Positions 24,112 through 52,620 of a stretch of DNA of 64,000 nucleotides are shown piece after piece; position 1 is the stretch's first letter, and each line of letters begins with the position of its first letter. Under the pieces are notes generated by a model. The model worked only from the letters and a program-made list of their open reading frames with translations. It made no database searches and was not told the DNA's origin. The translations under genes were made by a program, and so were the position numbers. The DNA comes from an uncultured Opitutales bacterium. Its GTDB lineage: Bacteria > Verrucomicrobiota > Verrucomicrobiia > Opitutales > UBA2995. The stretch covers positions 1,890 to 65,889 of the forward strand of contig CALJGU010000153.1 in NCBI GenBank assembly GCA_938075565.1, in the 5' to 3' direction.

Positions 24112-25497
24112 TTATTCTATGTTATGATTAGACTGCAGTAAGGTATCCATGTTTGCGCGTTCGACAAATTCTTCGATAAACTTGGTCGTCGCTTTACCAT
24201 TTCTAAACACAGGATCCTGCATAATTGCTTTAGAAAACGGAATCGTCGTTTTGATCCCGCTTATAATAAATTCTCCTAAGGCCCGATACATGCGGTCCAT
24301 GGCGATTTCTCGGTTTCTGCCATAGGTAATTAGCTTCCCAATCATGCTATCATAATAGGGAGGGATTTGGTAACCACCGTAGACATGTGAATCCACGCGT
24401 ACGCCGTGCCCTCCGGGGGGATAGTAAAGATCGATCGTTCCTGGGCAGGGCGCAAAGTTTCTCATTGGATCTTCCGCATTGATGCGGCACTCAATCGCAT
24501 GACGATTGATGACGATCTCATCCTGAGTGAAGCGCAGTTTTTGCCCATCCGTGATGCGGATTTGCTCTTTGATCAAATCAGTATCCGTAATCTCTTCAGT
24601 TACCGGGTGCTCAACCTGTATACGGGTGTTCATCTCGATGAAGTAGAAATTTCCATCTTCATCGACTAGGAACTCAATCGTACCGGCATTGGTATATCCT
24701 ACTGACTTGGCCGCTTGGATAGCAGCGTTCCCCATTTTCTCCCGCAATTCGTCTGTGAGGAAGGGTGAAGGTGCTTCTTCGATGAGTTTTTGGTGCCGGC
24801 GTTGTACCGAGCAATCCCTCTCACCAAGGTGAACCACATTGCCGTGGTTGTCGGCAAGGATCTGGAACTCAATATGACGAGGATTGTTGATAAACTTTTC
24901 TAAGTAGACGTCGCCGTCTCCAAAGGCTTTTTCGGCCTCTGCTTTTGCCACTTCAAATTCTTTGTGGAAGGCTGCGCTGTTGTGAGCCACTCGCATTCCT
25001 TTTCCGCCGCCACCTGAAACTGCCTTGATGAGTACGGGGTAACCGATGGATTCGGCCACTTTGACGGCTTCTTCAGTTGTCGGGATGACTCCGTCACTTC
25101 CGGGAACGGTAGGTATGCCTGCTTTCCGGGCCGTTTCGATTGCCAGGGCTTTGTCGCCCATATTGCGGATGATTTCCGAGCTCGGGCCGATAAATTTAAT
25201 TTTGCAGCTTTCACATTGCTCTACGAATTCAGCTTTCTCCGAAAGAAAGCCGTAGCCAGGGTGGATGGCATCCACATCTGAAATCTCAGCTGCGCTGATG
25301 ATGCGATCTGCTTTGAGATAGCTTTCACTGGGTGATGCCGGTCCGATGCAGATAGCTTCGTCGGCCAGCTGGACATGCAGTGACTGCTCATCAGCTTCCG
25401 AATAAACGGCTAGCGTCTTAATACCTAGCTCTCGGCAAGCGCGAACGATGCGAAGAGCAATTTCGCCACGATTGGCGATGAGAATTTTACTGATCAT
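24112..25497 (-). CDS. accC: Acetyl-CoA carboxylase biotin carboxylase
   Basis: [60 protein letters not shown]. Confidence 0.98.
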
Positions 25498-25509: not shown

Positions 25510-25977
25510 TTAGGATTTAACCTTAAACAGTGGCTGACCGTACTCCACGGCGTCTCCGTTTTCTACAAGGATTTCTTTGATCGACCCAGAGAGTTCGGCC
25601 GGGATTTCATTCATGACCTTCATGGCTTCGATGATACAAACCGTGGTGTCCTTGTTTATTGAATCTCCAACGCTTACAAAGGCTGGGCTGTCCGGGGAAG
25701 AAGCTGTGTAAAAGGTGCCAACCATGGGTGACTTGATCACAACGACACCTTTCTCCTCTACTTCGCCTGCCGCAGCCTCAGCTGGTGCCGGAGCTGCTGG
25801 TGGAGGTGTGTAGGCCGGAACAGGAGCTGCATAAGCAGGCATGGCCGCTGCACCGTTGCCCTGGTTTTCATCACTTCGACAGATTCGTAGCTTCAAGTCT
25901 TTTTCCTCAATCTCAAACTCAGTGAGCGAGGACTTTTTCATGATGTCGATGATCTGTTTTATTTGTTTTAAGTCCAA
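25510..25977 (-). CDS. accB: Biotin carboxyl carrier protein
   Basis: [40 protein letters not shown] start. Confidence 0.97.
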
Positions 25978-47358: not shown

Positions 47359-49026
<1,668 letters not shown>

Positions 49027-49833
49027 ATGTTTTTTGATTCCGATAAACTATTGCTCCTTGCGGGCCCCTGCTCCTTGGAATCCTTGGAGGTATGCAGGCC
49101 TGTTGCTCAATGCCTGATCGACATCCAGGGTCAAAATCCGGAATTAAATATCGTTTTCAAAGGGTCTTTCGATAAGGCCAACCGGACTTCTATTGCTGGA
49201 TCGCGCGGCACAGGCCTTGAGTCAGGCTTGGAAATCCTCAGTACCATCAAATCTGAGTTTGGATTACCCGTAGTGACCGATGTGCATGAATCCAATCAAT
49301 TACCCAAACTCGCCGAGGTGGTTGATGTTATTCAGATTCCGGCCTTTTTATGCCGTCAGACCGACCTGTTGCTGGCAGCAGCGAAAACAGGGAAAGTGAT
49401 AAACGTCAAAAAAGGGCAGTTCCTTGCACCGCAAGATATGGCCCATGTGGCAGGCAAATTGCAGGAAGGTGGAGCTTCTGAAATCTGGCTCACCGAACGA
49501 GGATCTACTTTTGGTTATCGGAACCTTGTGGTGGATATGCGTGGTTTTGAGCAAATGAAAGAAACAGGGTATCCTGTAATTTTTGACGCCACCCATAGCG
49601 TACAACTCCCCAGTGGTGGGGACGGAAAGAGTGATGGACAACGAGAATTTGTGCCACCCTTAGCGCGAGCAGCCCTTGCCGCAGGCGCTCAGGGAATATT
49701 TTTAGAGACCCATCCTGACCCAGAAAAAGCAATCTCGGATGGGCCTAATATGGTTCCCCTTTCTGAATTATCTGATTTAGTGATCCAATTATTGAAAATC
49801 TGGAAGGTCATGAAATCCTTGGCTCCCAGCTGA
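49027..49833 (+). CDS. kdsA: KDO8P synthase
   Basis: [58 protein letters not shown]. Confidence 0.97.
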
Positions 49834-49855: not shown

Positions 49856-51442
49856 ATGGATACGTTTGTTGCTCAAATCCCAGTCCCGTCTATGGGGGCT
49901 ACCGTCCACGAATTAACGCTCATCGATGTTGAGGTAGAAGATGGCGAATCTGTTCAAAAGGGACAGAAATGCGCCGAATTTGAGAGCGATAAGTCTGCTT
50001 TCGATTTTGAAGCCCCTTGTTCGGGCACGATCAAAAAAATCCTGGTTAGAGCCGGGGATCTCGTGGAAGCGAATTCTCCCTTTATCTGGATTGAAACAGA
50101 CGATAACTCTCAAAAGCACCTTGAAGTATCTGGTGAAGCAGCAAACGGCGTAGATGCAACTCCATCTAAAGAGCCGGTTTCCAAGCCACAACCTGCGGTT
50201 GAAAGTGCTCCGGCAGCTTCCCCCGCCGCCCCTGTTGCGAGGCCTTCTCTTCAAAGTTCTCAACCAGGAGGATTGGTAAAATGGACCCCAAAGGCCTTGC
50301 GAATCATTCGCGATGCTGGATTTGATCCCGCGACAATTACGGATATCCCAGCAACGGGACCCGGAGGTCGGGTTTCTGGAGATGACGTAAAGACTTATTT
50401 AGCTACACAACCAGCTCCCACGCCCGCCGCGGAGGCGACTCCTTCGTCAGGATCAGACCGGGAAACCGTCTGTATTGCTGGAATTGGCTTTGCAGTTCCC
50501 AAAACGGTAAAAACGAATAAGGAGCTCCTGGAGAAGTTTCCTGGAAAAACGGAAGAAGAAATAGTCAAGACGACTGGCATATCTCAACGGCACATTGCCG
50601 GAGAAGGGGAAGGAGTCACCAAATACGCATTGCAAGCCTGTGAAAATGCACTGTCGATGTCCGGAATAGACGTTTCCGATGTGGATGGTATCATCATGGC
50701 CACTATCATTCCTGATCAACCGGTTCCTAGTTCAGCCAGTGCCTTGGCTCAACTGCTTGGAATTCCGGGAGCTTTAGCCTTCGACCTGAATGCGGCTTGT
50801 TCGGGCTGGTTATATGCCTTGGAAACTGGACGTGCATTTATTCGTTCCGGAACTGCCCGAAATCTATTGGTGGTAACAGCGGAATTACTTTCTCGAATCA
50901 CTAACTACGAAGATTATAGCACGGCTTTTCTATTCGGAGATGGTGCCGGTGCTGCTGTGTTGACTGATTCAGAAGAAGGCCATCAGCTTCATCGTTTGGA
51001 ACTTACGGGTGACGCAACCCAGTACGAAGCCATCCAGCGTGCTGGCGGAGGAGCTAAGAATCCGATAGCCAAACCTGGCTGTGATTTGTCCGACTTTTAT
51101 CTTACTATGAATGGAGCGGCTGTATTCAAATACGCAGTAGTCGCTTTTGCGGACATCATAGAAGAGACGCTAAAGCGTGAAAATCTTACCGTGGAGGATG
51201 TTGATTGGGTGGTTCCACACCAGGCCAATGAGCGAATCCTGAAAGCGGTTAGTAAGCGTGTCGGTATACCTTACGAACGTTTTGTTGTTACTATCGGAAA
51301 GTATGCGAATACCTCCGCTGCTTCTGTGTCTATGGCACTAGGGTGGGCCGCAGAAGAAGGAATATTCGAACCTGGAAACAAAATCATTTTTTGTTCGGTA
51401 GGCGCAGGGTTGACCTATGCGGGTGGGCTTCTCGAGTGGTAG
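49856..51442 (+). CDS. fabH: Lipoyl domain + E1/E3-binding domain + 3-oxoacyl-ACP synthase III (FabH) fusion
   Basis: aa1-81 lipoyl domain (EFESDKSA, K46); Ala/Pro linker; aa141-183 PSBD (TGPGGRVSGDDV); aa204-528 KAS III with NAACSG (C315), FGDGAGA, PHQAN (H455), ANTSAAS (N485). Confidence 0.9.
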   Translation: MDTFVAQIPVPSMGATVHELTLIDVEVEDGESVQKGQKCAEFESDKSAFDFEAPCSGTIKKILVRAGDLVEANSPFIWIETDDNSQKHLEVSGEAANGVDATPSKEPVSKPQPAVESAPAASPAAPVARPSLQSSQPGGLVKWTPKALRIIRDAGFDPATITDIPATGPGGRVSGDDVKTYLATQPAPTPAAEATPSSGSDRETVCIAGIGFAVPKTVKTNKELLEKFPGKTEEEIVKTTGISQRHIAGEGEGVTKYALQACENALSMSGIDVSDVDGIIMATIIPDQPVPSSASALAQLLGIPGALAFDLNAACSGWLYALETGRAFIRSGTARNLLVVTAELLSRITNYEDYSTAFLFGDGAGAAVLTDSEEGHQLHRLELTGDATQYEAIQRAGGGAKNPIAKPGCDLSDFYLTMNGAAVFKYAVVAFADIIEETLKRENLTVEDVDWVVPHQANERILKAVSKRVGIPYERFVVTIGKYANTSAASVSMALGWAAEEGIFEPGNKIIFCSVGAGLTYAGGLLEW

Positions 51443-51558: not shown

Positions 51559-52620
51559 ATGTCTGTCTTGCTCAACATCCTCATCGAAACTCTGCTCCTG
51601 ATGGCCTTCCTATGGATAGGTAAGTCCGTCATGAAAGCCCAGTTGCACCCCAAAACATTGGTGGTCACTGCGTTAGCAGGCGCTTGTGCAAGTCAGGTCC
51701 TTTTTGTAGGGCTTTATCTTTCTTTTGCTGTGGTCCTCTTTTTTATGTGGAAAATGGCCCGGGTGGATATCGTGCCCGATGGCGCACTGATCGTAATCAT
51801 CGGTAAGGGTGTGTCATTTATCGCAATGATCTGGGTAGTGGGCGCAATTTGGGATCAAACCGGATCAGGCGACCTAGCTGGTTTGGTAGAAGAAATGCCA
51901 ATTTATGAAGACGGAGACGGCATTTCATATTTCGCTGAGGGGGAAAAAGTCTACTACCGGAATGTGGACGAAGAAAAGGTATACGTAGATGCCAACGTGC
52001 TTTTTGGTATATCTGAAGTGGTTTCAGACTCTGCTGAAGGTGATAAAGCTGCATCCGCGGAAGGCAGTGACCTTGCCCCAGATGAACTTGAAGAAATTGC
52101 AGCAGTCCAATCCAATGACCCACTTAATGTGGATTCTGCTCCTGGATTTTCCGAGCCGTATTTATCTGACTCAATGGTCCGAGGTGAACCCGTTCCGTTT
52201 CTACTATTTGTTCCTCAAGGTTGGATGGTAAAAAAGGAAAAAGGTTCTGTAGCACTGCGAATAGATGATCATACTTTCATCCACTGTTTCTCCAATGATG
52301 CCATCTCAAATAATAAGACCTATTTGCGGAATGAAGTAAATCGAGTTTTGTCGCAGTATTCTGGGTACGAAGTGGCTCGACAGGAAATTGTCACTATGGA
52401 CAAAAAGCAGTGGGCACGTGTGCAATTTGTAAACCAAAGAGGCGATCAAGTTCTTATTCTTACTCATGGAGGGAATCGCGGTTCTTACACCGTTGAGCTA
52501 AATGGATCGTTTAAGCAGCTAAGCGCTCAAAAATCTGTTCTGAACCGAGTGATTACTAGCTTCAAGTTTCCGGCAAGTACCTACTTCGTTGCAAAAGTTG
52601 AAGCTGAAGAAGAGCTCTAG
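51559..52620 (+). CDS. Hypothetical membrane protein with acidic linker and C-terminal PsbP/Mog1-like region
   Basis: Three or four N-terminal TMs, acidic middle, C-terminal FLLFVPQGW ... RVITSFKF pattern. Confidence 0.65.
   Translation: MSVLLNILIETLLLMAFLWIGKSVMKAQLHPKTLVVTALAGACASQVLFVGLYLSFAVVLFFMWKMARVDIVPDGALIVIIGKGVSFIAMIWVVGAIWDQTGSGDLAGLVEEMPIYEDGDGISYFAEGEKVYYRNVDEEKVYVDANVLFGISEVVSDSAEGDKAASAEGSDLAPDELEEIAAVQSNDPLNVDSAPGFSEPYLSDSMVRGEPVPFLLFVPQGWMVKKEKGSVALRIDDHTFIHCFSNDAISNNKTYLRNEVNRVLSQYSGYEVARQEIVTMDKKQWARVQFVNQRGDQVLILTHGGNRGSYTVELNGSFKQLSAQKSVLNRVITSFKFPASTYFVAKVEAEEEL

Follow-up and report, generated by a model that had tools for sequence, protein, structure and literature searches.

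Two families of enzymes bear on the gene described here, the condensing enzyme FabH (β-ketoacyl-acyl carrier protein synthase III, or KAS III) and the E2 acyltransferases of the 2-oxoacid dehydrogenase complexes. In FabH, the adenine of coenzyme A (CoA) is stacked between W32 and R151 and hydrogen-bonded to T28, and the phosphopantetheine is held by R36, N210 and N247 (PMC4606726); W32, R36 and R151 are likewise named as the CoA-site residues of Escherichia coli KAS III, R36 being also placed near the acyl carrier protein (ACP)/tunnel entrance (PMC8036411). The present analysis concerns a stretch of 64,000 nucleotides from an uncultured Opitutales bacterium (contig CALJGU010000153.1 of assembly GCA_938075565.1; hereafter the window), and within it a gene whose product carries a lipoyl domain, a peripheral subunit-binding domain (PSBD) and a FabH domain on a single chain. 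There, the FabH condensing domain would stand in place of the E2 acyltransferase core of a 2-oxoacid dehydrogenase, would take its primer from the lipoyl arm and would initiate fatty-acid synthesis without CoA, a reading to which we give a probability of roughly 0.6. Indeed, the loss of the residues that grip CoA, combined with the presence of a lipoyl arm, suggests that fatty acids are started directly from 2-oxoacids, with no CoA intermediate.

The FabH domain is 36–40% identical to canonical FabH (E about 1e-60), and its residues were matched to the E. coli enzyme through a HMMER alignment to E. coli-type FabH chains and through MAFFT alignments, all of which agree; the codons were checked. 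At the CoA clamp, T28 is replaced by K231, W32 by E235, R36 by T239, R151 by Y354 and N210 by A421. The catalytic triad is kept (C112/H244/N274 corresponding to C315/H455/N485), as are the pantetheine-tunnel residues M418, G420, F424, N458 and I461 (M207, G209, F213, N247 and I250 in E. coli). The ACP patch of FabH is said, after the work of Zhang et al. in 2001, to comprise K214, R249, K256 and K257; the window protein retains it as K425, R460 and K467/R468, together with F424 at the position of F213. All matched residues lie within, or a few codons past, positions 50540-51250. The first-pass annotation of this DNA had read the changes at 32, 36, 151 and 210 and the retention of K214 and R249 from a hand alignment, which HMMER and MAFFT both reproduce, and the roles that it gave to W32 and R151 (the adenine sandwich) and to R36 (CoA contact) are those found in the literature (PMC4606726, PMC8036411). 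It had also allowed that a formal alignment might place aromatic or arginine residues at the clamp positions: this is not the case at 32 and 36 (Glu and Thr), but it is at 151, where the tyrosine is aromatic and not small.

The protein is a hybrid in that its FabH part scores above the family thresholds but lacks the residues of the acyl-CoA site, and its N-terminal third lacks an E2 catalytic domain. Residues 204-528 pass the NCBIfam fabH models (PRK09352, NF006829, 334 against a cut-off of 249; TIGR00747, 310 against 292), and Pfam places ACP_syn_III and ACP_syn_III_C over residues 309-528 (PF08545, 94.4 bits; PF08541, 102.3 bits), Biotin_lipoyl over 7-76 and E3_binding over 142-178, the last being a marginal match (PF02817, 24.1 bits against a cut-off of 23.7). 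Over the first ~200 residues, NCBIfam matches are limited to the lipoyl and linker parts of the E2 models of the pyruvate and 2-oxoglutarate dehydrogenase complexes (PDH and OGDH); NF011457 (AcoC) and NF008854 (lipoyl-E1beta) match the N-terminus in the lipoyl region only. Accordingly, the top matches in the Protein Data Bank (PDB) are FabH chains (~1e-61), and E2 chains cover residues 5-199 only. PF00198, the 2-oxoacid_dh catalytic domain, has no match in the 528-aa protein, FabH occupying that position. An AlphaFold2 (AF2) monomer built with 105 homologues predicts three well-folded modules separated by disordered linkers (residues 98-139 and 190-200), with a mean predicted local distance difference test score (pLDDT) of 86.5 and a predicted template-modelling score (pTM) of 0.75.

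The N-terminal modules are strongly conserved. K46, whose lipoylation is predicted from its motif, is invariant in 169 of 169 Opitutia and 58 of 58 Spirochaetota homologues, and the PSBD motif W-T-P-R/K-A...T-G-P-G-G-R-V-S-G-D-D-V is almost invariant across the Opitutia clade. A cysteine nine residues past the lipoyl-lysine (C55, motif FEAPCxG) is kept in 168 of 169 Opitutia and 57 of 58 Spirochaetota homologues; ordinary E2 lipoyl domains generally vary at the equivalent position. The same protein, 100% identical, was found in two metagenome assemblies, and at least 262 matching stretches were retrieved from GTDB species genomes, the best 80 loci being all Opitutia/Verrucomicrobiota; public annotation calls the fused protein a plain ‘beta-ketoacyl-ACP synthase 3’ (also ‘beta-ketoacyl-ACP synthase III’). 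Two other identities were rejected: that of a biotin carrier, owing to the ESDKS motif and the PSBD, unlike the EAMKV of AccB in the same window, and that of an assembly chimera, as the same architecture occurs in hundreds of independent genomes.

For comparison with other FabHs, the FabH domain alone was searched against 1.84 billion cluster representatives, and the best 150 were aligned with 228 fused homologues gathered by two word-indexed searches; the stand-alone set comprised the 136 full-length representatives of 50% clusters nearest to the query, and the lipoyl-associated set 234 sequences. W32 is found in 132 of the 136 stand-alone FabHs (97%), R36 in 120 (88%), R151 in 119 (88%) and T28 in 116; the W/R/R trio occurs together in 107, four are without W32 and a single one is without all three. 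Among lipoyl-associated FabHs, W32 and R36 are both absent (0/234 each) and R151 is missing from 173. This fused-versus-stand-alone alignment was the check proposed by the first-pass annotation, and at W32 and R36 it bears out the expected co-occurrence. The 317 E. coli positions were also ranked as discriminators (conserved in stand-alone FabHs, changed in the fused clade): the top two places went to 32 and 36, in that order, with 28 in fifth place and 151 in eighth, so that the residues singled out beforehand were not cherry-picked. None of the lipoyl-associated sequences aligned at the C-H-N triad departs from it, which argues that condensation has been retained, rather than mere transacylation.

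Three lineages can be distinguished among the lipoyl-associated FabHs. Clade A, which includes the window protein (58–100% identity to it), belongs to the Opitutia (Opitutales) of the Verrucomicrobiota, with Pelagicoccus, Termitidicoccus, Ereboglobus, Nibricoccus and Rariglobus as named members. There, 98% of the sequences carry E or D at position 32; the residues seen elsewhere in the site are L, I, T or V at 36, K, M or R at 28, A, G, P, S or T at 210, and H, Y, F, K, Q or P at 151 (H/Y/F in 84%). Entropy at 28, 36, 151 and 210 lies at the 80–86th percentile of the FabH domain, versus the 14–20th for 28, 36 and 151 in stand-alone FabHs, where 210 is already variable (70th). Such variability fits relaxed selection in Opitutia, and position 32, which has not decayed, is actively kept acidic. 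The ACP patch and tunnel remain fixed in this clade: R249, K256 and F213 are invariant, 257 is always Arg, 214 always K or R, and tunnel positions 209, 213, 247 and 250 are invariant.

Clade B consists of Spirochaetota (Salinispira pacifica, Spirochaeta lutea and many metagenome-assembled genomes) with the same lipoyl-PSBD-FabH layout and a FabH domain 44–50% identical to that of clade A; all of its members, or nearly all, have Tyr32, Val36 and Arg151 (Arg151 in 98%). Clade C (Chitinivibrionales-like) is represented by a 442-aa lipoyl-FabH without PSBD (P0126), again with Tyr32, Val36 and Arg151. Clades A and B have the derived residues F115W, I155F, F304V, L189I and V26F in common, which suggests a common ancestry. 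All lipoyl-associated FabHs have lost W32, R36 and T28, but only those of Opitutia have lost the adenine sandwich completely. Clades B and C keep Tyr32 and Arg151, so that having a lipoyl partner does not by itself entail full loss of the clamp.

A split form was also found. The 333-aa FabH P0121, 67% identical and bearing the substitutions E, L and H, is encoded 26 nt downstream of a gene for a 156-aa lipoyl + PSBD protein, with a TAA stop between the two, in three independent assemblies. As these separate genes have the same substitutions, the association is with a lipoyl partner, not with a covalent tether. The first-pass annotation had stated that CoA selection was lost and ACP docking kept. 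This reading appears to hold in Opitutia, given the variable positions 28, 36, 151 and 210 and the invariant 249, 256 and 257, but it has to be qualified for position 32, held acidic, and for clades B and C with their Tyr32/Arg151 pair. As to unfused relatives with the same substitutions, which that annotation would have counted against itself, the split form is one, but with a lipoyl-PSBD gene adjacent; a stand-alone FabH treated below is a true exception.

These patterns bear on a reading in which the lipoyl-PSBD part is a scaffold only, tethering FabH to PDH or to the branched-chain 2-oxoacid dehydrogenase (BCKDH), so that fresh acyl-CoA would be channelled to it and bound in an altered mode. 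Indeed, Acinetobacter baumannii KAS III binds CoA with a modified clamp, Phe replacing Trp (PMC8036411), Tyr32 and Arg151 are kept in clades B and C, Y354 of the window protein is aromatic and the pantetheine-tunnel residues are intact. However, a pure tether would need no invariant lipoyl-lysine with a conserved flanking motif; in Opitutia four nucleotide-contact positions are variable, and an acidic residue at 32 is unfavourable for the CoA phosphates. In addition, the cassettes of clades B and C, described next, have no E2 catalytic domain to make acyl-CoA, this gene replacing E2 after E1. We therefore consider scaffolding alone distinctly unlikely.

In clade B, the lipoyl-FabH gene directly follows a gene for a ~657-aa fused E1 alpha-beta (E1_dh + Transket_pyr + Transketolase_C), both in locus L008, where E1 alpha-beta lies 0-50 nt upstream, and in 11 of the 11 Spirochaetota genome loci having downstream sequence (53–100% identity). 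In clade C, the E1 alpha-beta and the PSBD-less lipoyl-FabH genes overlap by 4 nt on three contigs, and on a Chitinivibrionales contig E1 alpha-beta is followed by a lipoyl-domain gene running off the contig end. The cassettes of clades B and C contain no 2-oxoacid_dh catalytic domain; in both, the FabH fusion takes the E2 gene slot. Acyl delivery by the tethered lipoyl arm, as claimed in the first-pass annotation, thus gains from the E1 alpha-beta gene that immediately precedes the lipoyl-FabH gene in clades B and C, but the tether itself is not required, as the split form indicates.

Being placed exactly where the E2 catalytic domain would be, the FabH-like domain could also act as a surrogate E2, i.e. 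mainly as a transacylase that unloads the lipoyl arm onto CoA or holo-ACP, with no condensation. Acyl-CoA:ACP transacylation is a known side activity of FabH enzymes, and clades B and C have a possible adenine sandwich, so that these two clades may be bifunctional, or partly E2-like transacylases. However, H244 and N274, which serve malonyl decarboxylation and condensation and not thioester exchange, are conserved in all aligned lipoyl-associated sequences, the NCBIfam fabH thresholds are passed, and the CoA nucleotide site is gone in Opitutia. As a general explanation, a surrogate E2 is in our opinion very unlikely.

In Opitutia, no E1 was found within ±10 kb of the fused gene, whether in the window or at the 80 loci inspected. 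Outside Spirochaetota, Opitutaceae, Opitutales and Ereboglobus proteins are among the closest relatives of the E1 alpha-beta (41–45% identity), in parallel with the relationships of FabH. The Opitutia E1 alpha-beta yielded at least 476 matching stretches, the best 80 loci being all Opitutia; at least 17 assemblies are common to the E1 alpha-beta and fused-FabH lists, and one 71-kb contig carries both genes. With NCBIfam, this E1 falls below all equivalog cut-offs, which leaves pyruvate and branched-chain enzymes undistinguished; the JGI label is ‘2-oxoisovalerate dehydrogenase E1’. A lipoyl hidden Markov model (HMM), by which the positive controls (window protein, split form and AccB) were detected, matched the E1 flanks (±8 kb) in four of 80 loci, all with a full lipoyl + PSBD + 2-oxoacid_dh set, and a tblastn search of the window lipoyl domain against the Opitutia E1 flanks gave no match. 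An E2 beside the Opitutia E1 was rejected as its partner: in L167, the one of the four that was typed further, the gene is SucB (equivalog-level, 281 bits to PF00198), followed by Lpd, that is, the OGDH complex. This sucB + lpd pair lies ~5 kb upstream of E1 alpha-beta, and in L139, L145 and L200 (Opitutaceae) an E2 gene of the same layout is in the equivalent position. The lpd gene also shows that these bacteria have an E3 at their disposal.

Downstream of the Opitutia E1 alpha-beta gene come kdsC, an OstA/LptA-like gene, lptB and hprK, in 58-75 of 80 loci (kdsC-lptA-lptB in 65-75 of 80); E1 alpha-beta thereby heads a conserved run E1ab-kdsC-(150-aa open reading frame, ORF)-lptA-like-lptB-hprK (L113, L114 and L121-L200). 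The fused FabH gene has kdsA no more than 600 bp upstream, on the same strand, in 45 related Opitutia loci. Both presumed partners are thus located in operons for 3-deoxy-D-manno-octulosonate (KDO) and lipopolysaccharide (LPS) transport. This placement could indicate a specialised role for the same chemistry, the enzyme making primers only for the hydroxy-fatty acids of lipid A/LPS, with a canonical FabH encoded elsewhere; both the 45 loci with kdsA and the kdsC-lptA-lptB genes behind E1 would fit. In one Opitutaceae genome (UBA4094, locus L070), however, the gene is adjoined by acpP and fabF, and no second canonical FabH was found in ~1.3 Mb of Opitutia flanks (flanks only). We regard such a restricted role as unlikely.

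The order in L070 is acpP (87 aa), fabF (416 aa), ydjM (opposite strand), fused FabH and rsmE, which puts the fused gene beside core genes of type II fatty-acid synthesis. The only second KAS III-like gene of these flanks, in L066, was rejected as a canonical FabH: it is a distant relation, 31% identical to E. coli FabH and with Lys at position 32, in a sugar-modification cluster whose neighbours appear by sequence inspection to be sugar aminotransferase-, hexapeptide-repeat acetyltransferase- and short-chain dehydrogenase/reductase (SDR)-like genes. This L066 gene probably serves sugar or LPS modification and not a housekeeping function.

Taken together, these observations allow a mechanism to be proposed for lipoyl-delivered, CoA-free initiation, in which we infer every catalytic step, the identity of the substrate and the loss of CoA use. 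A heterodimer-type E1, fused alpha-beta and encoded elsewhere in Opitutia genomes, would dock on the PSBD, decarboxylate a 2-oxoacid (probably branched-chain, possibly pyruvate too) and reductively acylate lipoyl-K46. The acyl-dihydrolipoyl arm would then swing into the FabH tunnel and pass the acyl group to C315, malonyl-ACP would dock on the basic patch K425, R460, K467 and R468, and condensation with the help of H455 and N485 would give 3-ketoacyl-ACP, Lpd (E3) re-oxidising the lipoyl arm. With the primer no longer carried by CoA, T28, W32, R36, R151 and N210 would no longer be selected for holding a nucleotide, hence their replacement in Opitutia. The acidic residue at 32 and the aliphatic one at 36 possibly fit the lipoyl-lysine arm or the lipoyl domain, and the exchange of charged or bulky nucleotide-binding residues at the tunnel mouth for small, aliphatic or acidic ones would make sense for a nucleotide-free donor whose arm is aliphatic and shorter.

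The primer is probably branched: the lipids of cultured Opitutia are rich in iso-C14:0, iso-C15:0 and anteiso-C15:0 (PMC10288369, PMC5303756). The window itself contains accC and accB, which implies that the organism still makes malonyl-CoA from acetyl-CoA. In the E. coli enzyme, F87 limits the primer pocket; this residue is Val in clade A, consistent with a larger pocket.

The invariant lipoyl-lysine and its motif, the conserved PSBD and the retained H244/N274 are all consistent with lipoyl delivery followed by condensation, as are the E1 synteny in clades B and C, the lack of a cognate E2 near the Opitutia E1, the split form and the acpP-fabF neighbourhood in L070. Several observations nevertheless weigh against it. 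The invariant Tyr32 and Arg151 of clades B and C, the very clades linked to E1, could still stack adenine, and at Y354 the window protein still has a planar residue. The E1 and FabH genes of Opitutia lie apart; what links them is that they co-occur, that their phylogenies run in parallel and that both are placed in KDO/Lpt operons. All lipoyl-associated FabHs form one clade in only 21 of 40 neighbour-joining bootstraps (clade A in 40 of 40), so the correlation between residues and fusion reflects one to three evolutionary events, and the sequence counts are not independent. Lastly, one stand-alone FabH, P0148 from an Entotheonella cluster, has lost W32, R36 and R151 (H/L/T at these positions) with no lipoyl gene nearby in its locus (L120). 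The P0148 gene divergently adjoins a 1190-aa gene resembling pyruvate:ferredoxin oxidoreductase (POR) or indolepyruvate:ferredoxin oxidoreductase.

The last two points, together with the absence of W32 from 4 of 136 stand-alone FabHs, would suit phylogenetic inertia, i.e. changes at 28, 32, 36 and 151 that are a peculiarity of the lineage (another primer, or the local ACP) and have nothing to do with lipoyl delivery. Yet the changed positions are the top-ranked discriminators among 317 and are precisely the reported CoA-nucleotide contacts (PMC4606726, PMC8036411), the pantetheine tunnel and the ACP patch are untouched, and the pattern persists in the split form, where the lipoyl gene is still adjacent. 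Inertia, like a surrogate E2, is in our opinion very unlikely. Coming back to lipoyl-delivered initiation, its fullest version is a complex of E1 alpha-beta, lipoyl-(PSBD)-FabH and Lpd that works without CoA, as a ‘2-oxoacid : malonyl-ACP ketoacyl synthase’. This complex would be the main or sole initiator of (branched-chain) fatty acids in Opitutia, as well as in some Spirochaetota and Chitinivibrionales-like bacteria, and it is in Opitutia that the change would have gone furthest, with the CoA nucleotide site discarded altogether. We put this version forward tentatively, at slightly under even odds.

The features of the gene, its surroundings and the other loci are collected in table 1. Directly downstream of the FabH gene, a 353-aa ORF with a hydrophobic start has no Pfam match and is present in only 2 of 80 related Opitutia loci; another ORF of the window (918-919 aa), on the opposite strand, has no Pfam match either.

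Table 1. Coordinates of the lipoyl-FabH gene, its domains and key residues, its neighbours in the window and the comparison loci (positions in the window unless a locus is named).
Feature	Position	Strand	Basis or remark
Whole gene, lipoyl - linker - PSBD - linker - FabH, 528 aa	49856..51442	+	ORF; Pfam, NCBIfam
Lipoyl domain, about residues 1-92	49856..50131	+	Biotin_lipoyl 2.5e-15; AF2 beta-barrel, high pLDDT
Lipoyl-lysine K46 (predicted), motif ESDKS	49991-49993	+	homologue conservation
C55, invariant Cys of lipoyl domain	50018-50020	+	homologue conservation
Disordered Ala/Pro/Ser-rich linker, residues 98-139	50147..50272	+	AF2 pLDDT < 50
PSBD/E3_binding, about residues 142-184	50279..50407	+	PF02817, conserved motif, two helices at pLDDT ~90
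FabH (KAS III) domain, residues 204-528	50465..51439	+	PRK09352, TIGR00747 above cut-off
Altered CoA-nucleotide site, first helix: K231, E235, T239 (E. coli T28, W32, R36)	50546..50572	+	alignments, codons
E235 (E. coli W32)	50558-50560	+	alignments, codons
T239 (E. coli R36)	50570-50572	+	alignments, codons
Catalytic C315	50798-50800	+	alignment to E. coli C112
Y354 (E. coli R151), second face of adenine sandwich	50915..50917	+	alignments, codons
Tunnel-mouth/ACP-patch segment: A421, K425, R460, K467/R468	51116..51259	+	alignments, codons
Catalytic H455	51218-51220	+	alignment to E. coli H244
Catalytic N485	51308-51310	+	alignment to E. coli N274
pyrG	47374-49026	+	co-oriented upstream of kdsA
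kdsA	49027-49833	+	stops 22 nt before FabH gene start
353-aa ORF	51559-52620	+	directly downstream of FabH gene
accC, biotin carboxylase	24112-25497	-	
accB, biotin carboxyl carrier protein	25510-25977	-	biotin motif EAMKV
ORF, 918-919 aa	26173-28932	-	no Pfam match
Split system, lipoyl-PSBD gene then FabH gene	L005 3638-5136		also L006, L007
acpP to rsmE, with fused FabH	L070 6488-11055		Opitutaceae bacterium UBA4094
KAS III-like gene	L066 15095-16174	-	rejected as canonical FabH
E1-headed run	L113 8001-13337; L114 2801-8435		
sucB + lpd	L167 117-2924		~5 kb upstream of E1 alpha-beta
P0148 locus	L120 1941-6906		stand-alone FabH

If initiation does proceed in this way, it would be a new entry into bacterial fatty-acid synthesis, in which a thiamine-dependent decarboxylase hands the primer, by way of a lipoyl arm, to a condensing enzyme, and the primer never exists as acyl-CoA. 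Lipoyl arms and PSBD scaffolds would gain a function, the E2 core being swappable for a thiolase-fold enzyme, and the making of iso and anteiso lipids in Opitutia, a large and environmentally abundant clade, could be explained. The signature itself (no W32, no R36, ACP patch kept) offers a simple way to recognise such enzymes, and the residue pattern would amount to a natural experiment on the fate of the CoA site once CoA is not the carrier. The two-gene module (E1 alpha-beta + lipoyl-FabH) could also be considered for engineering branched-chain fatty-acid production. Our literature search found no paper on a lipoyl-FabH fusion or on lipoyl-dependent priming, though journals outside the searched collection may hold one.

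Compared with canonical FabH/KAS III (E. coli; PDB 1HND, 1HNJ, 1HN9), the window protein has the same fold, domain pair, triad, tunnel and ACP patch, but it differs by an N-terminal lipoyl + PSBD part of ~200 residues, by the lack of the CoA-nucleotide contacts T28, W32, R36, R151 and N210, by Val in place of F87, and by F115W, I155F and F304V, common to other lipoyl-associated clades. Like the E2 of PDH, BCKDH or OGDH, its N-terminal half consists of a lipoyl domain with the motif (E/T)-(S/T)-D-K, an Ala/Pro linker and a PSBD, and in clades B and C the gene comes right behind that of E1, where an E2 gene is normally found. Unlike E2, it carries FabH instead of PF00198; its core would be a FabH-type dimer and not a 24- or 60-mer, and the acyl group would be accepted by a protein cysteine, then by malonyl-ACP, instead of by CoA.

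Among pathways, the closest is the branched-chain initiation of Firmicutes (BCKDH to acyl-CoA to FabH): the same input and output would apply, from branched 2-oxoacid to branched 3-ketoacyl-ACP, and Opitutia fatty acids are indeed mainly iso and anteiso (PMC10288369, PMC5303756). There, however, E1-E2-E3 releases acyl-CoA for a separate FabH with the W/R/R trio, whereas the CoA step appears to be bypassed here. A lipoyl domain on a partner other than a classical E2 core is also known from AcoC of acetoin dehydrogenase, from lipoyl-E1beta and from lipoyl-E3, the likeness to AcoC being seen here over the lipoyl domain; in the window protein, by contrast, a condensing enzyme of the thiolase fold is the partner. 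Finally, A. baumannii KAS III (F56/R193; PMC8036411) also has a re-engineered adenine sandwich, which the Tyr32/Arg151 pair of Spirochaetota resembles; that enzyme, however, is a stand-alone user of acyl-CoA with an aromatic + Arg pair, whereas the window protein has Glu at position 32.

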